From the NCBI GenBank assembly GCA_016198945.1, contig JACQHO010000048.1, positions 1-24,276 of the forward strand: DNA of 24,276 bases. The letters are read 5' to 3'. The stretch is from Nitrospirota bacterium. GTDB taxonomy: Bacteria > Nitrospirota > Nitrospiria > JACQBZ01. The notes beneath the pieces are model-generated. The model searched no databases, was not told where the DNA came from, and saw nothing but the letters and a program-made list of their open reading frames with translations. The position numbers and the translations under genes were made by a program. Shown in pieces: positions 3,102 through 22,806 of the stretch; the first letter of the stretch is position 1, and each line of letters begins with the position of its first letter.

Positions 3102-5662
3102 CGTTCCAAGACACGCCGAGAGACCGACTGCCGACGGCTTCACTTCCGATCACACCGCTTCTCCCCTCGCTGCGTGAAGCGCTCGCCTCGCATGCGGCCG
3201 CCGTGCTTCAGGCGCCGCCCGGCGCCGGCAAGACCACGGTCGTTCCGCTTTCGCTGTTGGATGAACCCTGGCTTGCGGGTCGGTCCATACTGATACTGGA
3301 ACCCCGCCGGCTGGCCGCACGCGCGGCCGCGGCGCGAATGGCATCCCTGCTGGGCGAATCCGTGGGCGAGACGGTCGGTTATCGCATCCGGTTTGATTCA
3401 AAGATTTCGGCGAGAACACGCATCGAGGTGCTGACGGAAGGAATCCTCACGCGGCGGCTCCAGTCCGATCCCGGCTTGGAGGGCGCGGGGCTTGTGATCT
3501 TCGATGAGTTTCATGAGCGGCATATCCATTCGGATCTGGCTCTGGCGCTCTGTCTTGACAGTCAACGGACCCTGCGCGAGGATCTTAAGCTCCTCGTGAT
3601 GTCCGCAACGCTCGATGGAAAGGCCCTGGCCGCTCTCCTCGGCAACGCGCCGTTGCTCACGAGTCACGGACGCAGTTTTCCGGTGGACGTTCGTTATGCC
3701 GCGCGCGATCCGGAGGAAACCGAAAAGCGACTTCCGGAGACTGTGAAACAGGCCGTGCTGAATGCGCTAAAACATGACAAAGGCGACCTGCTCGTGTTTC
3801 TTCCCGGCGCATGGGAAATACGCCGAACGCAGGAGCTGCTGGAGGCCGCATTGACTCAAGACGCCGTCGATCTTTTCCCCCTCTACGGCGATCTTCCGTG
3901 GGAGGCGCAGGACCGCGCGATCCAACCGTCGCAACGTTCGCGGCGCAAAGTCGTTCTGGCCACGCCGATCGCCGAGACGAGCCTCACGATCGAAGGGATC
4001 GGCGTCGTGATCGACTCGGGCTTTGCGCGGATTCCCGAATTTGATCCGCGGAGCGGTTTGACGCGGCTGACGACACGGCGAATCTCGCGCGCCTCGGCCG
4101 AGCAGCGCGCGGGCCGGGCCGGGCGGCTCGGTCCCGGCGTCTGCTGCAGGCTCTGGACGGAAGCGACGCAGCGCGGGCTGGTCGCACGGCCCATTCCGGA
4201 AATACGCGCGGCCGATCTGACACCGCTTGCGCTCGAGCTTGCGCAATGGGGCGCGCGCGACGCAGGCACGCTTTCGTGGCTCGATCCCCCGCCGGCGGGC
4301 GCGCTGGCGCAGGCCCGACGATTGCTGACCGATCTCGGCGCGCTGGACCCGGAAGGCGTCATCACGCCGGCAGGACGCGCGATGGCCGCGCTGCCGCTCC
4401 ATCCGCGCCTTGCGCATATGGTGCATGCCGCCGATGCGCTCGGCCTCGGCCGTCCGGCCTGCGATATCGCCGCGCTGCTCTCGGAACGGGATATTCTTAC
4501 CGGTGATCGAAAGCGCTCGGTCGATTTTCTGGAGCGGGTCGAGGCATTGCGCGCCTTCCGCGCGCGGGGACGCGCGGGAGATCAGTCGTCCGGCGCTGAT
4601 CCGTCCGCCTGTCAACGCGTCGAGCAGGCGGCGCGTCAATTTCATCGTCTGCTAAGAAGCCGGGAGACCGAGGCCCCGCATCCTGCCGAGGCGGTCGGCC
4701 TTCTTCTCGCGCTCGCCTACCCCGACCGGATCGCGCTCCAACGGGCGCCGGGCGATCTCCGCTATCTCCTCGCATCCGGTCGCGGCGCCCGGTTGCCGAG
4801 GCATGAAAATAAAATGCGTCCGCACTGTCTTGTGGCGGCCCATCTTGATGCCGGCGAAACGGAGGGGACGATCCATCTCGCCGCGGCGGTGGATATCCAT
4901 GCGTTGCGCGATCAAATAGCCTCCCGGTTTCGTACGAACGACATCATCCGTTGGGACGCGCAACTTCAAAGAGTCGTCGCGCAGCGTGAAGAGCGGTTGG
5001 GCGAACTCCTCATCAGCAGCGGCGCGATTCCCGATCCCGATCCGGAAAAACTGCTCGCGGCCGCACTGGAGGGCGTTCGAAGCCTGGGCCTATCGGCGCT
5101 TCCATGGTCGCGCGAGGCGCGCGACTTTCAAACGCGCGTGCTGTCGCTGCAACAATGGTTGCCTCAAGAGAACTGGCCGGATCTGTCCGATCCCGCGCTG
5201 AGGGAGTCGCTCGAAGAATGGCTTGGGCCGTATCTCGGCGGCGTCACCCGCCGCGAACATTTCAATCGGCTGGACCTGCTCGCGATCCTGAAGGCGCGGC
5301 TGGATTGGGCGCTTCAACAACGTCTGGAGGAAGGCGCGCCGACGCATCTGGCCGTTCCCTCCGGATCGCGACTGCGGCTTGAATACCGGCCCGGCGAATC
5401 GCCGGTGCTGGCCGTGAAGCTTCAGGAGATGTTCGGACTGGCCGACACGCCGCGCGTCGCATGGGGAAAGGTGCCCGTGACGCTGCATCTTCTCTCCCCG
5501 GCCCGCCGTCCCATCCAAGTCACGCAGGATCTTCGCGGATTCTGGGAGCGGACCTATGCCGAGGTCAAGAAGGAATTAAAAGGCCGCTATCCCAAGCATC
5601 CCTGGCCCGATGATCCCTGGAAGGCCGTCCCGACCGCCCGCGCCAAACGGCATTCGCGTTAG
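3098..5662 (+). CDS. hrpB: ATP-dependent DEAH-box RNA helicase HrpB
   Basis: Motifs [45 protein letters not shown]. HrpB-type C-terminus AVKLQEMFG...[19 protein letters not shown] overlap with the upstream stop. Confidence 0.95.
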
Positions 5663-5691
5663 TTGACATATTTTTTGAAGAGGATTATACA
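5663..5691 (+). promoter_or_regulatory. Possible sigma70-type promoter for the metallopeptidase gene
   Basis: TTGACA (5663-5668), 17-nt spacer, TATACA (5686-5691) in an AT-rich intergenic gap. The -10 lacks the final T. Confidence 0.4.
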
Positions 5692-5700
5692 GACAGGGAA

Positions 5701-6726
5701 ATGGAACACGCCTCATTGCTCGCCGCCGCCCGAACCCATCTCCGCGACACCATCACGCTGGCCCTCGGCCATACTCCCGACCGAAGAGCGCTTCTGGTGT
5801 ATGATGAACAATCAAGCCTCGCAACGCTGGTTGCGGAGGGGTATCGCGCCATCCTGCCGGACGCCGCCGCGTTGAATTTCGATGAAGCGACGGCGGAGGA
5901 AATCCTGCGGGCCGTGGACGCGCTTTCGCCGAAGGACTTGGTGATCTTCGTCCAGTCAACCCGCTTCCGACTCAATGAATTTCGGTTTCGAATCGAGATC
6001 TTCAACCGCAACTTGAAAGTGATCGAGCATCCCCACCTTGCGCGGATCCGCGAAGAGGAGTTTTCAACATATATCGACGCCCTGGCATATGACCCGGCCT
6101 ATTACCGCACCATCGGACCGGCGCTCAAGAAACGCCTCGACCGCACGCGTCATGTCAAGGTGATCTGTGAAGGGACCGAGCTCGTCTACGATACCCCCTT
6201 TGAAGATGCGAAATTGAACATCGGGGACTATTCCGGGATGAAGAACATCGGAGGACAGTTTCCGATCGGCGAGGTCTTCACCGAGCCGAAGGAAATCCGC
6301 AGCGTGAACGGGACGATCAAGCTTTTCGCGTTTGGCGATACCGATTTTTCAGTGAACGCGACCGAAAAACCATTTTCCGCAGCGATTGAACAGGGGATAA
6401 TGGTCGCCGCGCCCGATGCGCCGGAGGCCTTCCACGTCGTGCTTGAGCAAATCCGCGCCGATGAGGGCGTGATATGGGTGCGAGAGTTGGGTTTCGGTCT
6501 GAACCGCGCGCTCACCCGTGAGCGGCGCGTGAGCGATATCGGCGCGTATGAGCGGATGCTCGGCGTCCATCTCTCCCTCGGCGCCAAGCATGCCATGTAT
6601 ACGAAGGCGGGGTTCCCCAAAAAGCACCGATTTCACGTGGATGTCTTCGCGGCCGCCGAGCGCGTGGAGGTGGATGACGAAACAATCCTTGAGGGGAAGA
6701 GGTATACGCTCGGATCACCGCGTTGA
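5701..6726 (+). CDS. Thermophilic metalloprotease (M29/aminopeptidase T)-like protein
   Basis: The C-terminal half keeps the M29-fold metal-ligand pattern: FPIGEVF, RELGFGLN, YERMLGVHLSLG, HVDVF. The N-terminal half is divergent. Confidence 0.7.
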   Translation: MEHASLLAAARTHLRDTITLALGHTPDRRALLVYDEQSSLATLVAEGYRAILPDAAALNFDEATAEEILRAVDALSPKDLVIFVQSTRFRLNEFRFRIEIFNRNLKVIEHPHLARIREEEFSTYIDALAYDPAYYRTIGPALKKRLDRTRHVKVICEGTELVYDTPFEDAKLNIGDYSGMKNIGGQFPIGEVFTEPKEIRSVNGTIKLFAFGDTDFSVNATEKPFSAAIEQGIMVAAPDAPEAFHVVLEQIRADEGVIWVRELGFGLNRALTRERRVSDIGAYERMLGVHLSLGAKHAMYTKAGFPKKHRFHVDVFAAAERVEVDDETILEGKRYTLGSPR

Positions 6727-6752
6727 CAACCGGCCGGCGGATATGATAGTTT
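6723..6752 (+). promoter_or_regulatory. sigma70-type promoter upstream of the fluoride riboswitch
   Basis: TTGACA (6723-6728, containing the upstream TGA stop), 18-nt spacer, TAGTTT (6747-6752) with extended TG. The predicted start near 6759 lies just before the aptamer. Confidence 0.6.
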
Positions 6753-6763
6753 GAAATCAGATA

Positions 6764-6823
6764 GAGGCGATGGGGTTCGCCGAAACCGTCCTGAAACGAT
6801 TCTTCGGGACTGATGACCCCTAC
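6764..6823 (+). ncRNA. Fluoride riboswitch (crcB motif) aptamer
   Basis: Sequence GGCGATGGGGTTCGCCGAAACCGTCC...GGACTGATGACCCCTAC matches the crcB consensus. P1: GGCGA (6766-6770) with TCGCC (6777-6781). P2: 6788-6795 with 6803-6810. Pseudoknot: GGGG (6772-6775) with CCCC (6817-6820). Confidence 0.95.
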
Positions 6824-6852
6824 TCCAGTTAGAAAGCGAGTAGGGGTTTTTT
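6816..6852 (+). terminator. Intrinsic terminator forming the riboswitch expression platform
   Basis: 10-bp stem ACCCCTACTC (6816-6825) with GAGTAGGGGT (6838-6847), followed by TTTTT. The left arm overlaps the pseudoknot strand, so terminator and aptamer are mutually exclusive. Confidence 0.9.
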
Positions 6853-6906
6853 GTTGCCCGATGAAAGCCTGCAACGATTAAATTTTCGCCGAAGGAAATC
6901 ATCGAC

Positions 6907-8109
6907 GTGGAAAACAATCTTCTGATCGCGATGACCTGGTTCATACTGGCGCTCGCGGCTTCTCTGATCTCGATACGGATCGGCGTCTCGGTCGCACTGG
7001 TCGAGATCCTGGTCGGCACACTGGGCGGGAACTTCATCGGCCTTCATCCCAACGACTGGATCAATGTGCTGGCCGGTTTCGGAAGCGTCGTGCTGACCTT
7101 CCTGGCCGGGGCTGAGCTGGACCCCAAGGTGCTTCGGCGAAAATGGAGGGAGAGCCTCGGGATCGGATTCGCCTCGTTCTTCGCGCCGTTTCTCGGCGCG
7201 ATGGCCTACGCCTATTGGATCGCGGGCTGGTCGCCGGAGGCGTCCCAGATCGCGGGCATCGCGCTTTCGACCACTTCGGTGGCCGTGGTCTATGCCGTGA
7301 TGATCGAGCGGGGGTATAATCAGACCGAGCTGGGTCAGGTGATTCTCGCGGCCTGCTTCATCACGGACCTGGGCACCGTGCTGGCGCTGGGACTGCTGTT
7401 TGCAAGCTACGATCGCTGGCTGCTGGTTTTTGTGGTTGTGCTGGCCCTCTCTCTTTGGCTTCTTCCGCGGACGACTCCATGGATCTTTGCCCGCATGAGA
7501 AGCCACATCAGCGAGCCGGAAACGAAATATCTTTTAGTCGTCCTGTTCGGCCTCGGGGCCCTGTCGATGGCCGCAAAGAGCGAGGCGGTGCTTCCGGCCT
7601 ACCTCATCGGGATGGTTCTGGCGCCGGTCTTTCTTGCGAATCGTACGCTGGCTCAGCGGCTGCGCGTGATGACCTTCACTCTGCTGACCCCGTTTTATTT
7701 TCTGAAGGCCGGCGCCCTGGTGAATCTGCCGGCCGTCACGACCGGCGCGGCCTTGATCGGCGTCTTTCTGGCGGTGAAGATCGGTGCTAAATTTATCGGC
7801 GTCTGGCCGCTGACGCATTTTTTCCGCTTTGGGAGACGGGAAGGGATGTACACCACGCTGCTGATGTCCACGGGACTGACGTTCGGCACCATTTCCTCGC
7901 TGTACGGGCTGACGAATCATCTGATTGACCAGAGCCAGTACACGGTTCTCGTCACGGTCGTTATCCTCACCGCCGTCGTGCCGACCTTCTTCGCCGAACG
8001 CTGGTTTGATCCCAATGGAAAGACTGCAAACGAAGAGCAAGCATCCATGAAGTCACCCCAACAGAAACTTGAATCCGCCGCACCTGTCCTTAAAAAAGGA
8101 GAATCGTGA
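6907..8109 (+). CDS. Cation:proton antiporter (CPA2/Kef-like fold), fluoride-riboswitch controlled
   Basis: GTG start with GAAGGA upstream. 400 aa with about 13 hydrophobic segments. Motifs FLAGAELD, ALSTTSVAVV, ITDLGTVLALG, VKIGAK. Confidence 0.85.
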   Translation: MENNLLIAMTWFILALAASLISIRIGVSVALVEILVGTLGGNFIGLHPNDWINVLAGFGSVVLTFLAGAELDPKVLRRKWRESLGIGFASFFAPFLGAMAYAYWIAGWSPEASQIAGIALSTTSVAVVYAVMIERGYNQTELGQVILAACFITDLGTVLALGLLFASYDRWLLVFVVVLALSLWLLPRTTPWIFARMRSHISEPETKYLLVVLFGLGALSMAAKSEAVLPAYLIGMVLAPVFLANRTLAQRLRVMTFTLLTPFYFLKAGALVNLPAVTTGAALIGVFLAVKIGAKFIGVWPLTHFFRFGRREGMYTTLLMSTGLTFGTISSLYGLTNHLIDQSQYTVLVTVVILTAVVPTFFAERWFDPNGKTANEEQASMKSPQQKLESAAPVLKKGES

Positions 8110-8531
8110 TGTTTTCAAAAATCCTCGTTGCAGATGACGGCTCGGAGGGAGCGAAGAAAGCGCTGGGCGTTGCGATCGATCTGGCCAAGCGTTATCAGGC
8201 CGAGCTGCATACCCTCTCGGTGGAGGAACACCTGCCGCATTACGCCGCCACGGTCGGCGAGGTGGTGGAGGCGCACGCCGAGGCGGACGACTATTTTAAA
8301 AAGATCACGAAGGAGGCGAAGGCTATCGCAACCCAGCAGGGCGTCGCGCTTCATGCCCATGTCATGCCCGGTCATGAGGTCGAGACGGTCGTGACCTTTG
8401 CCAAGGAAAAGGGCTTCGATCTTTTGGTGATCGGTTTCATGGGCCATTCCAAAATCTTCGGCCGGATCTGGGGCAGCACCTCGCAAAATTTGACCCGATT
8501 GTCGCCCTGCACCGTCCTGGTGGTAAAGTAA
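8109..8531 (+). CDS. Universal stress protein (UspA family)
   Basis: KILVADDGS at the N-terminus and DLLVIGFMGHS...WGSTSQNLTRLSPCTVLVVK at the C-terminus. TGATG overlap with the antiporter stop (alternative GTG at 8106). Confidence 0.92.
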   Translation: MFSKILVADDGSEGAKKALGVAIDLAKRYQAELHTLSVEEHLPHYAATVGEVVEAHAEADDYFKKITKEAKAIATQQGVALHAHVMPGHEVETVVTFAKEKGFDLLVIGFMGHSKIFGRIWGSTSQNLTRLSPCTVLVVK

Positions 8532-8548
8532 GCTCCCAAAAGAGCGTC

Positions 8549-8577
8549 TTGTCAAATGTCCCCTGCCGTGCTATATT
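8549..8577 (+). promoter_or_regulatory. sigma70-type promoter for the NUDIX operon
   Basis: TTGTCA (8549-8554), 17-nt spacer, TATATT (8572-8577) with extended TG. This implies the ATG at 8556 is not transcribed and the start is 8607. Confidence 0.6.
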
Positions 8578-8606
8578 GTCCTACCGGTTTGACCCTATTG
8601 ACACCC

Positions 8607-9053
8607 ATGAAAACCAAAAGCGCGATACACCAGATTTCATCCGGCGGCGTGATTTTCCGCCAGGGCGGCGGTGGGATCGAGGTCGCACTGATCCGCAAAG
8701 CGCTCAAAGGCGGAAAAAGGATCTGGTGTCTTCCCAAGGGATGGGTCGAGCCCGGTGAAAGCCTGGAGGATGCGGCCGTCCGGGAGGTCCGTGAAGAGAC
8801 CGGACTGGACGGTAAGATCCTCCGAAAGATCGGAGAGACCGCATACCATTTTTATTCCAAAGAAAGCCGGGCCAGGATCGACAAAACCGTCCATTTCTAT
8901 TTGATGAACTATCTCCGGGGAAACACGGCCGATCACGATCAGGAGGTCGAAGCCGCGGCCTGGTTTCCGCTGGAGGAAGCCGAACCGCTCGTCGCCTACC
9001 CGACCGAGAAAGAAATCGTGCGGAAGGCCCGCGAACTTCTCACACTCGTTTAG
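8607..9053 (+). CDS. NUDIX hydrolase (Ap4A hydrolase-like)
   Basis: Complete Nudix box [23 protein letters not shown], preceded by SSGGV and WCLPKG. The start was moved from 8556 to 8607 on promoter grounds. Confidence 0.9.
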
Positions 9054-9060
9054 GATTGCA

Positions 9061-9972
9061 ATGCGAACAGGCGTGGTCGAAATCGTTATCGGGCTGGCGA
9101 TCCTCGCAACCGGCTGCGTTTCATCCTCCATCCACCAAACCGCGCTGATGGACCTTTCGGAAACGCGAGACCGCCTCGACCGGGCCAAAGAGGAGAACGC
9201 CGCCCTGAGAGCGGATCTCGCGGCCCGGGACGCCGTTCTCCAGGATCTGCGCCGGCAGATCGCGGAGTTTCAGAGCACCGGGCACCTCCAGTCCGAGGAT
9301 GCGGACCGGATGGCCAAGCGAAACCTCGAACTGTCGGGTGAAAATGCGAATCTCGCAAGCCAGAACCGGGATCTCTCCCGGATCCTGGAAGCGCGCAATC
9401 AGGAATTTCAAGAGCTGCGCGATCGCCTCGCGGAAGAAGCGAAGGCCAAGGAAGCGGAGGTCGCCCGTTTGAAATCCACCTATGACAAACTGGTCGGCGA
9501 GCTTCAGGAAGAGATCAAGAGGGGGGATATCACGGTCACCCGGGTGATGGACAAGCTTTCGGTGAATCTGGTCGAAAAAATCCTGTTTGATTCCGGAAGC
9601 GCCGAGATCAAACCCGAAGGCCTCAAGATCCTGGATCGCGTCGGCGGGATCTTGAAATCAGTCACGGACAAGCAGATCCGGATCGAGGGATACACCGACA
9701 ACGTCCCCATCGGGTCCCGCCTGACGGAAACGTTCCCGACCAACTGGGAGCTGTCGGCCTCCCGTGCGGTCAACGTGGTTCGGTACCTGTCCGGCCCCGT
9801 CGGCGTCCCCTCCCGTCTGCTATCGGCCGCCGGTTTTGCGGACAATCGTCCCGTCGCATCAAATGAAACAAAGGAAGGCCGGTCTCAAAACCGGCGGATT
9901 GAGATCGTCCTTCTTCCGTCCGATATGGATCAAGTGCTTCAGGAACTCAAATCACCCTCACCTTCTCCCTGA
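9061..9972 (+). CDS. Lipoprotein with long coiled coil and C-terminal OmpA/MotB-like peptidoglycan-binding domain
   Basis: Signal peptide ends in LATG-C. Heptad-rich region covers about aa 30-150. C-terminal motifs: ILFDSGSAEI, IRIEGYTDNVP, NWELSASRA, NRRIEIVL. Confidence 0.85.
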   Translation: MRTGVVEIVIGLAILATGCVSSSIHQTALMDLSETRDRLDRAKEENAALRADLAARDAVLQDLRRQIAEFQSTGHLQSEDADRMAKRNLELSGENANLASQNRDLSRILEARNQEFQELRDRLAEEAKAKEAEVARLKSTYDKLVGELQEEIKRGDITVTRVMDKLSVNLVEKILFDSGSAEIKPEGLKILDRVGGILKSVTDKQIRIEGYTDNVPIGSRLTETFPTNWELSASRAVNVVRYLSGPVGVPSRLLSAAGFADNRPVASNETKEGRSQNRRIEIVLLPSDMDQVLQELKSPSPSP

Positions 9973-18030: not shown

Positions 18031-20730
18031 TTATGACGATACCGTCTCTTTCCGGATAAACCGCTTGCGGAATTCTTCCAGGACCAGCATTCCGGCGGCG
18101 AAGGGAATCATAAAAAGCCAGACCTCCGGCACAATCGGGGCCGTGCCGAAAATCTGATTCCCCCACGGCGTGTAATCAATCAGCAGGATCAAACCGATCT
18201 CGGCCGCGATCCCCCACAGGATGAACGGGTTGCTGAAGAACCCGAAAGAGAATACCGATTCGTGATCACTCCGGCATAAAAAGACGTTCACGACCTGCAT
18301 CACGATGATCGCGGAGAGACAGGCCGTCGTGGCCTGTAAATAAAGGGGATCATTCCAGGCCAGCGCCTGTCCGAATTGCCACCCGCCCCGGTGAAGAACA
18401 AAGAGGAAGGCCGCCATGGCTGCAACGGCCTCCAAGACCCCCAAAAAAAGATACGCCCGAAAGATCAGCGCCCGGTTCCACAGACGCTCCTTGGAAGAAC
18501 GGGGCGGCCTCTTCATCAGCCCGGGCTCGGGCTTCTCCACCCCCAGTGCGAGGGCCGGCAGCATGTCCGTTCCCAAATCCACCGCCAGGATCTGTATGAT
18601 CGTCAGGGCCAATGGCAACTTGACCAGCGCAAAGGCCAGGTACGGCGCCAGCTCGGGAATGTTGGAGGTCAGAATATAGGTGAGAAATTTCCGGATATTG
18701 GAAAAGACGGCGCGGCCTTCTTCAATCGCGCCGACGATGCTGGCGAAGTTGTCGTCCAGAAGGATCATATCGGACGCTTCCCGCGCCACATCCGTTCCCG
18801 TGATTCCCATCGCAATCCCGATATCGGCCCGCTTCAGCGCCGGCGCATCGTTCACCCCGTCTCCCGTGACGGCCACGACTTCCTTCTTGCGTTTCAAGGC
18901 CTCGACGATCCGCATCTTCTGATCCGCGCCGACGCGGGCGAAAATAATCTCAGGAGCATCCAGGGCCAACTGGAGCTGGGCGGGGGAAAGCCGCTGGAGC
19001 TGATCCCCGGTAATGATCGTCGGCAACGCGGATTTGACCAGACCGATCTCGCGTGCGACGGCCAACGCGGTATGGGGATGGTCACCGGTCACCATGATCA
19101 CCTTGATCCCGGCCTCTTCGCATTTCCGAATCGCGCCGGGCACCTCCGGGCGGGGAGGGTCCTCAAGCCCCACGAGCCCGGTCAGGATCATCTCTTCCTC
19201 CAGATGGAGACGGTCATGCCCCTCTGAAACGGGACGGCAGGCAAAGGCCAGAACCCTCAAGCCACCGGTCGCCATCGTCTCCTCGGCGCGTAGGAAGCCG
19301 TCTTTCAAATCCGGGGTGAGGGGTTGAATATCTCCATTCCGCAGAACCCGACGGCAGAGCGGAAGAACCGTTTCCAGCGCGCCTTTTGTATAAAGAACCG
19401 ATCCGGGAGATTTCTTATGAAGAACGGAAAGCCTTTTTCGATCCGAATCGAACGGAACTTCGTCCAACCGAGGATAGTCCTCAAGAACCGGGATCGCCTT
19501 TTTGGCCATCTCGACCAAAGCGACCTCCATGGGATCCCCCGACAGTTCCTCCCTTCCATCTTTTTCGATCTTTTTGAGGTTGTGGCAGAAGAGCGCTGTT
19601 TCAAAAAATTGTCGGTGGGTATCCTGTAGGGGCGCACGGCCGTGCGCCCCTACATCGGAAGGAACATAAAACCGATCATCGAGATAAAGCCTTTTCACCG
19701 CCATACGATTCATTGTGATCGTACCCGTTTTATCGGTACAGATCACCGTGGCCGATCCCAATGTTTCCACGGACGGGAGATGTCGGATCAAGGCGTTTCG
19801 TTTCGCCATTCGTTGAGAGCCCATCGCCAGGGCCAGGGTGACGGTCGGAAGCAGTCCCTCGGGAACATTGGCGACAATGATGCCGATCGCAAAGATGAAG
19901 TTCTGCCAGAACGAGAGTCCGAGGGCCTGCCCGATAAAAAAGAAAGCAACGCCCAGGCCCGTCGCCAGCAGGGCCACCATGCGGCTCAGGCGAATGATCT
20001 CCTTCTGGAGGGGGGATGGGACTTCTCCCTGGGTCTGGGTCAGGTGGGCGATCCTGCCGAACTCGGTATGCATCCCGGTGGCAAAAACCAGGGCCCGGGC
20101 CTGGCCCGAGACAACCGAGGTGCCGGCCAGCAGAATGTTTTTGCTCCGGATCAGTTCTTCTCTATCGCTGGGATGGATCTCCCGGGCCTTCGGCAACGAT
20201 TCGCCGGTGATCGTGGCATTGTTCACACGGACCCCGAAACCCTGGACCAACCGGCAGTCGGCCGGAATCGCATCCCCTTCCGCCAGAAGAATCAGGTCGC
20301 CGGGGACCAACGCCGCCGCCGGGACCTGGATCACCTTGCCGTTTCGGAGCGCCTTGACCTGATGGGGAAGAATCTTTTGAAGGGCCGCAATCGCCTTCTC
20401 GGCCCGATATTCCTGCCAGAACGAGAACAATCCGTTGATCAGGATCACGCCCAGGATCGCAAAGCCCAGCGTCATCATCCCTTTTCCCGGATCATTCCAT
20501 TCGGCTATAAAGGCCAGACCTGCCGCGAGTAAGAGGATCACGGCAAAAAAATGGGTGAAGCCCTTCAAAAAACGGAGGATCAGAGGCTCCGCCCGTATTT
20601 TCTCGACGCGATTCGGACCGAACTCCGTCAACCGCCGGGCCGCCTCCTCCGTCGAAAGGCCTTCGGGACCGCTGTGGAGACTCTGAAGGGCCTCCTCCAC
20701 TGTGAGATGATGAATTTTCATCGCCGTCAC
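18031..20730 (-). CDS. Cation-transporting P-type ATPase, P2C (Na,K-ATPase)-like
   Basis: Motifs [58 protein letters not shown]. Start is GTG 20730 (GTGA overlap with the hydrogenase stop) or ATG 20721. Confidence 0.93.
19625..19654. repeat. Perfect 30-bp GTAG-type REP-like palindrome inside the ATPase coding sequence
   Basis: TGTAGGGGCGCACGGCCGTGCGCCCCTACA is its own reverse complement. It is read in frame as [10 protein letters not shown]. Confidence 0.85.
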
Positions 20731-22037
20731 TCAGACTCATAATGCAGTCGCAGAAAATGCGTCGCGCATGAGATGCACGGATCGTAATTGCGTATAGTTT
20801 GCTCGCACCGCAGTCCCAATTCTTCCTTGGACAGGCCGATATTCGACTGCACAAACCGCCGCAGATCGCTTTCGATCATCGCCTGATTCTGCGACGTCGG
20901 CGGAACGATCTTCGCTTCCTGAATGATCCCGTTCTCATCCACCCGGTAACGATGATACAGAATGCCGCGCGGGGCCTCGGTGCAGCCGGCGCCCGTTCCG
21001 GCACGGGGCCGGACCGGAACCGCCGGCGTCTCCGGCATTTCGTAGCCCCCAATGATTCGAAGCGCCTCGTCACAGGCATAGAGGATCTCGACGGATCGAA
21101 CGACGACGCTGCGGAAGGGATTGCGACAGACCGGTGAAAGGCCGGCCGACCGGGCCGCCTCCTGCGCGAGCGGCGAGAGCCGGTCAAAGTTGAGGCTGTA
21201 ACGGGCCATCGGGCCGACCAAATAGCCGCCCTGCCCGTCCGGCAGGCGGGCCCGGTTCTTGAACCGGGAATGCATCGCATGGCTGTGCGGCACCTGTTCC
21301 TCGATGAACTCATTCTCGTAGTCCCGCGTCGAAATCGTCAGACCCCGGTTCGAAACAAGACGGCCTTCGTTAAACGGATATTCGAAGGGATGGCGCAGCG
21401 ATACGAATTCATAGTCCTGTTCGAATTCCGGGAACGGCAGCACGGCGGTCCACCGAACCAATTCAAGAGCGGCGTCCCGCGCCCACTTGAGCCGCTCCGA
21501 AAGCGGGGCGAGCTCGCGTTTTGTCGGAACTTTATAGAACCCGCCGACACGGACATTGATCGGGTGGACTTCCCGCCCGCCGAGAAGCGCGATGATTTCG
21601 TTCCCCGCCTCCTTCAGCCGGAGTCCCCGCTCGACGACCCCGGGATGGTCCTTCGCCATTTTGAAGCCGTCGGGATAGCCCAGAAAGTCCGGGGCGTGAA
21701 GCATGACGACATGAAGCGCATGACTTTCGATCCACTCGCCGCAGTAGATCAGACGGCGAAGCGCGCGGAGCGGACCCCCCACCTCGATGCCGAAGGCGTC
21801 CTCCATCGCATGGACCGCGCTCATCTGGTAGGCGACCGGACAGATGCCGCAGATCCGGGCCGTGATGTCGGGGGCCTCGGAAAAGGACCGCCCCCGCAGC
21901 AGCGCCTCGAAAAAGCGCGGCGGCTCAAAGATCTCCAGCCGGACATCCACGACCGTGCCGCCCTTGATCTTCAGATAGAGCCCGCCCTCGCCCTCGACAC
22001 GGGCGAGGCCGCCCACCTTAATCGTTCCGTTTTTCAT
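20727..22037 (-). CDS. hyhL: Group 3b [NiFe]-hydrogenase large (alpha) subunit
   Basis: Start MKNGT at 22037. Motifs ARVEGEG, L1 [23 protein letters not shown]2 DPCISCATH followed by a 9-aa C-terminal extension. Confidence 0.95.
21230..21268. repeat. Two adjacent hairpins inside the hydrogenase large subunit gene, one a REP-like 21-bp element
   Basis: CCTGCC-CGTCC-GGCAGG (21230-21246) followed by CGGG, then CCCGGTTC-TT-GAACCGGG (21251-21268, perfect 8-bp arms). Bases 21231-21251 encode ARLPDGQ. Confidence 0.65.
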
Positions 22038-22806
22038 GCTTTTCACTTTCTTTGCGAAACGCCTCGGCATGGGCGTTGACGCCGCGAAAGACTTGCATGA
22101 TTTCCCGTTCACCCGCGCCGAGACGGCTCCATCCCCGGCTCAACGCGGCCGTGTTCGGCGTCTCCTTCGGGCCGAAGCAGCCGTAACAGCCGCGGTCATA
22201 CGACGGACAGATCGCGCCGCAGCCGGCATGGGTGACGGGGCCGAGGCAGGGCGTGCCGTGCGCCACCATTACACAGACATTTCCTTTGAGTTTGCATTCG
22301 ATGCAGACGCTGTGGGCCGGCACATTCGGCCTGCGTCCGTTCAGCAGGGCGACGATCACTTCAAGCAATTGCCGTTTGTCGATGGGGCAACCGCGGAGTT
22401 CGAAATCCACGGGAACGTGATCCGCGATCGGCGTGGAGGTCTCGAGCGTCTCGATATAGTCCGGACGGGCATAAACGATCGAAACAAATTCCTTGACGTC
22501 CTTGAAATTCCGGAGTGCCTGGATGCCGCCGGCCGTCGCGCATGCGCCGATCGTAATGAGGACCTTTGATGCGCGGCGGACTTGCTGAATACGCTTGAGA
22601 TCCTGCGGCGTCGTAATCGAGCCCTCCACCAACGAAAGATCATACGGACCCTTCACCACCGCGCGAGAGGCCTCGAGAAAATGGGCGATCTCGACCCGTT
22701 CGACCAGGGCCGGCAGCTCGTCCGTGCAATTGAGAAGACTCAACTGGCAGCCGTCGCAGGAGGCGAATTTCCAGACGGCAAGTTTCGGCTTTTGATTTTT
22801 CCTCAT
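22018..22806 (-). CDS. hyhS: Group 3b [NiFe]-hydrogenase small (delta) subunit
   Basis: Motifs [26 protein letters not shown], and distal cysteines [19 protein letters not shown]...CYGCFGP. Confidence 0.94.

Follow-up and report, generated by a model that had tools for sequence, protein, structure and literature searches.

The stretch of DNA analyzed here (contig JACQHO010000048.1 of a Nitrospirota bacterium, 24,276 nucleotides (nt), hereafter the window) carries a repetitive extragenic palindromic (REP) element inside the coding sequence of a P2-type cation-transporting ATPase. Our results make it very probable that this element is a double-foot GTAG REP of the class linked to subclass 2.4/group 4 REP-associated tyrosine transposases (RAYTs, HUH-Y1 enzymes), located in frame in a loop of the ATPase, with an early entry and later overwriting. 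The history of the site points to repeated renewal bounded by the REP itself, to which short allelic recombination adds in some lineages.

A perfect palindrome inside an intact ATPase gene

The sequence TGTAGGGGCGCACGGCCGTGCGCCCCTACA at positions 19625-19654 is its own reverse complement, i.e., a perfect 30-bp palindrome that reads alike on both strands, as a first-pass annotation of the same DNA had stated. An inverted-repeat scan of the whole window identified it as the sole long perfect palindrome, the runner-up among inverted repeats within 60 nt being of 16 nt at 88%, and about 2e-5 perfect 30-bp palindromes are expected in a random 24-kb sequence (24276 x 4^-15). The host gene is intact, occupies positions 18031-20730 of the minus strand and encodes 899 amino acids (aa) in an open reading frame (ORF) without a stop. 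Its product (P0001) shows the DKTGT phosphorylation motif in the ORF translation (aa 333-337; 19720-19734, minus strand), TGD, a third motif and full-length similarity to P2 ATPases, which place it among the P2-type cation-transporting ATPases. The best NCBIfam models, TIGR01106 (5.7e-193) and TIGR01522 (5.8e-179), both score under their curated cut-offs, TIGR01494 scores above its own, and the comparison with PDB sequences retrieved the Na,K-ATPase alpha subunit (3.9e-168); orthologues of the host ATPase are 65-91% identical. Codons 360-369 (19624-19653, minus strand) read the REP in the frame VGA....PL as a 10-aa peptide, which begins 27 codons past the catalytic Asp333 of DKTGT, confirming the coding position given earlier.

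Side-by-side arrangements of such ATPase genes were also observed. At the locus of the orthologue P0011 in a Joint Genome Institute (JGI) contig (L205), the orthologue overlaps by 4 nt with the gene directly after it, which encodes a further P-type ATPase of 903 aa, and contig C11 of G029 has two ATPase copies side by side.

A REP family with constant arms and exchangeable centres

The family unit is 28 bp long and bounded by GTAG...CTAC, consisting of GTAGGGGCG, a 10-bp palindromic centre and CGCCCCTAC. The copy in the ATPase (19626-19653, alike on both strands), with the centre CACGGCCGTG, is an exact member of this family. The outer T/A pair is peculiar to the ATPase copy, and the flanking bases vary in other copies and in orthologues; because the bases outside GTAG...CTAC differ between copies, the 30-bp palindrome can be understood as a 28-bp unit plus one flanking pair that is complementary by chance. 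The length divisible by three, which had been taken for a property of the element, is thus lost once the unit is defined as 28 bp. The stem can be written as GTAG-GGG-CG ... CG-CCC-CTAC, that is, a GTAG foot followed by three G-C pairs at the base.

The genome of the window (G000) is a metagenome-assembled genome (MAG) of 1.6 Mb in 246 contigs, 69% complete and with 58% GC; the names attached to the closest homologues of its ATPase assign it to Nitrospirota. Searching it for GTAGGGGCG ... CGCCCCTAC, each arm being allowed a single mismatch, yielded 37 copies, almost all of 28 bp and with a self-palindromic 10-bp centre, in agreement with the usual description of dispersed short palindromes (20-40 bp, many copies). 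The main centres were [CTA]ACGGCCGT[GAT], GTTCGCGAAC and TATTGCAATA, and the centre of the ATPase copy recurs in four further copies. It had been noted that REPs are normally extragenic, and counting the intragenic fraction bore this out, since 33 of the 37 copies are not robustly intragenic and several are located in spacers or immediately before start codons (atpG-atpD, purD). No second copy was found by a scan of the whole window, and the ATPase carries a single unit instead of an inverted REP doublet with a short spacer, as in REP doublets forming hairpins (REPINs).

The distribution of the family was surveyed in 31 related genomes with exact arms separated by N10 as the pattern and the reversed pattern as a control. 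Eighteen copies of this kind are present in G000 and 0-21 in the relatives, 20 of which have 1-21, and the reversed pattern returned 0 matches in the same genomes. Moreover, a multi-phylum scan with one genome per species found at least 120 loci in Cyanobacteria, Chloroflexota, Bacteroidota, Planctomycetota, Acidobacteriota, Desulfobacterota, Omnitrophota, candidate phyla and others. Among the multi-phylum copies listed, 91 of 127 centres are perfectly palindromic, and the same centres reappear across phyla. Public groundwater metagenome runs, represented by Logan contigs, gave an independent view of the boundaries: contigs stack on 19603-19664 with a summed word depth of about 4,100-9,700 (two runs) compared with roughly 0-400 on the adjoining flanks, and they part from the window sequence exactly at 19622-19624 and 19653-19655, which confirms the REP boundaries. 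Logos of the flanks of the 18 exact copies in G000 and of the 127 multi-phylum copies revealed no conserved target, the sole bias being a slight excess of pyrimidines at positions -1 and -2. A literature search with the 9-mer arms returned unrelated papers only among the matches listed.

Variants of the unit were seen elsewhere in G000. A few adjacent or composite REP pairs occur in contigs C109, C141 and C228; in two of them (C141:1069-1122 and C228:2353-2406), outer GTAGGGGCG / CCCCTAC feet surround two unlike inner hairpins (GGCGCCATGCATGGCGCC and another), and these composites look like hetero-dimers or nested REPs. The copies at C69:9748, C103:2805 and C169:18511, with two different centres, show a compensatory change of the foot, GCAG...CTGC for GTAG...CTAC. 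Besides, contigs C90, C190, C187, C87, C201 and C65 have an end no farther than about 200 bases from a REP copy (about 50 for C90, C190 and C87), and the 28-mer seems to fragment the MAG assembly. Because several contigs begin or end at a copy, the REP copy number in G000 is probably underestimated. Within the window, a 10-bp stem (ACCCCTACTC / GAGTAGGGGT) at 6816-6847, with a stretch of T after it, was rejected as a family member, being a terminator-like hairpin although GTAGGGG is contained in it.

History of the ATPase site

Orthologues of the ATPase were collected from related genomes and from metagenomic proteins with their DNA, about 20 lineages being sampled at the site, and a perfect REP was found at exactly the same codons in several genera. 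The centre CACGGCCGTG is present in G000 and P0011, GTTCGCGAAC in P0003, G003, G007 and P0023, and TATGGCCATA in G016; over the whole series the perfect copies have at least five types of centre. A relative represented in groundwater runs X3 and X4 also has GTTCGCGAAC at the ATPase site. Near-perfect copies were observed in P0008, P0010 and P0046, and decaying relics in P0002, P0005, P0029, G005, G043 and G032, with fainter ones in G045 and G093; relics have 1-5 mismatched pairs, occupy the same codons and also occur in sisters of perfect-copy lineages. At the protein level (121 sequences, i.e., the window's own and 120 listed homologues), the intact VGA....PL is found in about ten proteins and a relic-like form in some fifteen, P0027 (VGATGRSPLQ at the site) being on record as protein sequence only, with no DNA. 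In the proteobacterial orthologues, the loop is of unrelated sequence and shorter by two residues.

Throughout the series, the arms remain at the family consensus and the centres are unlike even between sisters. The first-pass annotation had proposed that a lack of other copies in the genome or relatives, together with synonymous sites varying freely among orthologues with the same peptide, would speak against a REP; instead, the arm nucleotides are kept. The sequences of G000 and P0011 are 74% identical overall and 52% identical at third codon positions, and they agree at 28 of 28 positions of the REP, the identical run opening at its first base. Similarly, G000 and G016 share 70% of nucleotides overall, 48% of third positions and 18 of 18 arm positions. 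Plain vertical descent with neutral drift was rejected because such divergences would have erased a 28-bp palindrome. The reverse situation is illustrated by G003 and its sister P0005, which are 86% identical overall and match at 27/30 and 26/30 positions of the flanks and at just 15/28 positions of the REP. In a gene tree of the ATPases built with the REP site masked, the centre types are interleaved, and the well-supported (starred) branches can be reconciled only with four or more separate placements of GTTCGCGAAC. In addition, for each copy at the site, identical REPs are present at other, unrelated positions in its own genome, so that it matches a resident subfamily.

Turnover of the same family was also detected away from the ATPase. 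The atpG-atpD spacer (C151:1985-2012 in G000; L180, L213-L216) is occupied by a REP in G000 and in G007, the centres being unlike, and G001, G002 and G003 have a compact junction without a REP, which amounts to a presence/absence polymorphism among close relatives. A variable loop of DabA contains REP relics with different centres in several genera.

These observations are best explained by a scenario in which a REP would have entered the loop-coding stretch early in the Nitrospirota ATPase clade, through a single-strand hairpin intermediate handled by a Y1 transposase. Its location in a loop, and a reading frame that was not closed, would have made it tolerable. The resident copy would then have been overwritten repeatedly by other family members, perhaps replaced by the transposase, or perhaps by short gene conversion or a template switch from one hairpin to another, with neutral decay of the copy between renewals and, in some lineages, an exchange of short patches between ATPase alleles.

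Probable link to Y1 transposases

The proposed enzyme class rests on the correspondence with known REP systems. As described by Quentin et al. (2018; PMC6006769), TnpA-REP subclass 2.4, which equals the group 4 RAYTs of Bertels, is characterized by the motifs NH[IFV]H, WQ and YIxNNP and a mean length of 194 aa, and is scattered over many phyla. The same authors attribute to this subclass long REPs with a stem base of three G-C pairs, double-foot REPs with 5' GT[AG]G and 3' C[TC]AC, and, in many phyla, tnpA-REP genes with REPs inserted in frame between HuH and Y. The feet and the stem base are matched by the present family, as is, in relatives, the in-frame position in tnpA-REP genes. In G002, G005, G009 and G012 we found Y1 genes of about 170-196 aa, with open frames of 170-213 aa, that carry the REP in frame just past the HuH motif, read in the.RG....APT frame; their motifs are MPNH.H as NH(L/I/C)H, WQRNYYE(H/R), and YI..NP as YI(L/A)(N/E)NP. 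Degenerate versions of this REP-carrying gene are present in G001 and G006. The subclass 2.4-type genes of the relatives score under the NF047646 cut-off, and a phmmer comparison of a subclass 2.4-like protein with PDB sequences returned nothing at E <= 0.01. G000 itself has, at C45:8930-9033, the opening 34 codons of a tnpA-REP gene of the subclass 2.4 type that is 88% identical to the gene of G002 and is cut by the contig end, the assembly break probably lying at the REP inside the gene.

Together with the 37 copies in the genome, the 20 carriers among 31 relatives and the empty reversed control, these genes support the earlier assignment to GTAG-type REPs tied to RAYTs. The first-pass annotation had further suggested a search for a RAYT gene flanked by the same REP; genes of the subclass 2.4 type do exist in relatives, the REP being located inside the ORF and not at its flanks.

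Four complete Y1 (PF01797) genes were identified in G000, on contigs C131, C83, C216 and C208 (L001-L004). They were rejected as candidates for the cognate enzyme since they are not flanked by the REP and their motifs (NHVH/NHYH/NHSH; RY[IV]..NPV) fit or resemble subclass 2.1, which has no REP association (PMC6006769). The gene on C208 encodes 323 aa, and a C-terminal stretch of its product matches the C-terminal DNA-binding region of DnaA (TIGR00362 332-436, E 8.8e-11).

Alternative explanations

Several points weigh against an early entry of a Y1-mobilized REP followed by overwriting. The alignment of ATPase orthologues, proposed earlier as a way to find an empty site, produced no clean one: REP-less orthologues are two codons shorter or of equal length, with an unrelated loop sequence, and for this reason the insertion as such can only be inferred. 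Besides, a unit of 28 bp is unable by itself to keep the frame. A complete subclass 2.4 gene is absent from G000, a MAG that is 69% complete, and the number of NF047646-type genes showed no correlation with REP copy number across the 31 genomes. The dissemination of REPs by the E. coli TnpA-REP is still termed poorly understood in the abstract of PMC8266576, and the present REPs can be regarded as putative substrates of a Y1 transposase on the indirect signs given by turnover and presence/absence. Translation of the REP peptide is predicted from the intact ORF only. Finally, the 12 nt that directly precede the REP (CGGCCCGATGAG) are the same in P0003 and G007 and agree at 11 of 12 positions in P0023, all three sequences having the same REP type, so that part of the interleaving reflects recombination between ATPase alleles and not REP-for-REP replacement.

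The last point leads to the alternative that survives best, namely that the interleaved centres as such arose when co-occurring Nitrospirota lineages exchanged short patches of their ATPase alleles by homologous recombination, with the REP perhaps as a hot spot, and not by replacement with paralogous REPs of the same genome. P0003, G007 and P0023 belong to different clades. P0003 and G007 are 80% identical overall, and their run of identity covers 26 nt before the REP and 34 nt counted from its start; over the 90 nt that begin with the REP, P0003 is more similar to G007 (0.88) than to G000 and P0002, its sisters (0.81-0.82). In contrast, the identical blocks of G000-P0011, G003-G007 and G003-P0003 open at the first REP base, with no common upstream flank, the copies at the site equal subfamilies that also occur at unrelated positions of their genome, and a like turnover is seen in the DabA loop and in an intergenic spacer. 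We consider it possible, although on the whole unlikely, that allelic exchange accounts for the pattern.

Independent insertion of a REP in each lineage into an empty hot-spot site, with nothing old at the position, would be in line with the polymorphic atpG-atpD spacer of close relatives and its different centres in G000 and G007. However, the relics at the same codons, also in sisters of perfect-copy lineages, imply residence and decay, no clean empty site exists within the REP-bearing clade and no conserved target flanks the copies, all of which renders this explanation improbable.

Even more doubtful is the retention of the hairpin for a function of the gene, be it as an mRNA stem (causing a ribosome pause at the boundary between the P and N domains or affecting mRNA stability) or as a DNA site for a host factor. 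The position is fixed across genera and the palindromy is perfect, and the REP RNA is predicted to fold into a stem of 12-13 bp with a 4-nt loop, the 101-nt region reaching a minimum free energy of -37.2 kcal/mol (z = -4.2 against shuffles). Nonetheless, the gene is intact with a decayed copy or none in several lineages, the sequence is a genome-wide family consensus and not one specific to this gene, and the centres were swapped wholesale to another family consensus instead of drifting by compensatory changes, so that gene-specific selection on the hairpin is disfavoured. A chance palindrome in GC-rich coding DNA, outside any repeat family, has nothing in its favour beyond the GC content of 58%, and this origin, already judged very unlikely in the first-pass annotation, is refuted by the expectation of about 2e-5 per window, the family copies in the genome, hundreds more elsewhere and the lack of reversed-pattern matches.

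The encoded peptide and in-frame copies in other genes

The REP-encoded segment was mapped, as had been suggested, on a structural model of the ATPase predicted by AlphaFold2 from 54 homologues (mean predicted local distance difference test score (pLDDT) of 75.9). In this model, residues 360-369 make up a loop where the N domain begins, between a strand (353-355) and a helix (373-381), and the pLDDT falls to 60 in the block 361-370 and below 50 at residues 363-365, compared with 83-90 in the flanking blocks. The segment aligns with a variable N-domain loop of the Na,K-ATPase alpha subunit, and the REP peptide is predicted to map to a disordered surface loop. Most likely it is a tolerated passenger without a role of its own.

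Because a TAG stop occurs in one REP frame only and the palindrome repeats this on both strands, four of the six frames are open, and these yield peptides rich in Gly, Ala and Pro (VGA....PL or.RG....APT). Four of the 37 copies in G000 are robustly intragenic, lying in the ATPase, DabA, a Kelch/Big_5/TIG protein and CheB; the DabA copy is inside the sole PF10070 match, and the CheB copy is in the linker that joins the receiver domain to the methylesterase domain. Some further copies are intragenic by ORF length alone and are better placed upstream of the true start (atpD, purD). The same 28-mer is in frame in other phyla in GltB (inter-domain linker), RibD, AcrB, the acyltransferase domain of a polyketide synthase, TonB and others. 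A search for CheB orthologues as a second intragenic test site gave only paralogues of 35-37% identity.

Relation to described repeats and significance

In-frame GTAG REPs are of a kind already published, to which the ATPase copy adds a member. Di Nocera et al. (2013; PMC3733652) described GTAG/CGTC REPs, single or as dimers, in frame in genes of known proteins, in presumed loops or linkers, as well as Pseudomonas putida REP peptides beginning with VGAG; the supplementary list of that study is without a P-type ATPase, and the comparison of orthologous sites through evolutionary time belongs to the present study and was not met in its available text. Quentin et al. (2018; PMC6006769) deal with REPs near or inside tnpA-REP genes, whereas here a copy in a housekeeping-type ATPase was followed across orthologues. 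Neither a 9-bp arm that stays constant while palindromic centres are swapped nor renewal at a single site was met in the available part of that article. Nunvar et al. (2013; PMC3686654) reported different REP classes at the same orthologous position in strains of Pseudomonas and Stenotrophomonas. Their position is an intergenic RAYT flank, in contrast to a codon-exact site in an unrelated coding gene with unchanged arms.

The likeness to Rickettsia palindromic elements (RPEs) proposed in the first-pass annotation stands as regards function, since both are in-frame palindromic repeats that add peptide segments to functional proteins (PMC3733652). In that study, RPE-4 and RPE-6 are equated with CGTC-type repeats and RPE-1 is a longer palindromic insertion. 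The likeness does not extend to sequence membership: judged by sequence and by the descriptions in the literature, there is no relation, the present REP having a GTAG foot and a family spread across many phyla. We know of no link between RPEs and RAYTs, and the present REP and the RPEs are best described as analogous, not as members of one group.

The find itself will appear ordinary to specialists, given that in-frame GTAG REPs and subclass 2.4 double-foot REPs have been published. The history of the site, in which the same codons were kept and the middle was exchanged repeatedly, seems new relative to the available texts of the cited literature. To our knowledge, REP persistence, replacement and decay have not been demonstrated in vivo. 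A natural series of these three processes at one codon-exact site therefore offers rare comparative evidence on REP dynamics. From a practical standpoint, these 28-mers break MAG assemblies, and REPs can yield 10-aa loop inserts rich in Gly, Ala and Pro in many proteins across phyla.

A tentative extension, which we consider possible but less likely than not, is that intragenic REPs act as long-lived "landing pads", the resident hairpin being a preferred target for overwriting by family members through a Y1 transposase or hairpin-guided template switching. If so, a site would stay at the family consensus far longer than neutral DNA and undergo repeated subfamily swaps, a resident REP might seed short recombination tracts between orthologous alleles, and a transposase-linked process would continually rewrite ten codons of otherwise conserved proteins. 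The question of REP spread would then become testable with comparative data.

A second short repeat in the window

A different repeat lies in the neighbouring gene for a hydrogenase large subunit (20727-22112, minus strand), where a palindrome-containing 22-mer at 21230-21251, CCTGCCCGTCCGGCAGGCGGGC, corresponds to a dispersed repeat with 8 copies in the MAG at no more than 2 mismatches and 27 at no more than 4. It is a second short repeat family, unrelated to the GTAG REP and also able to be coding.

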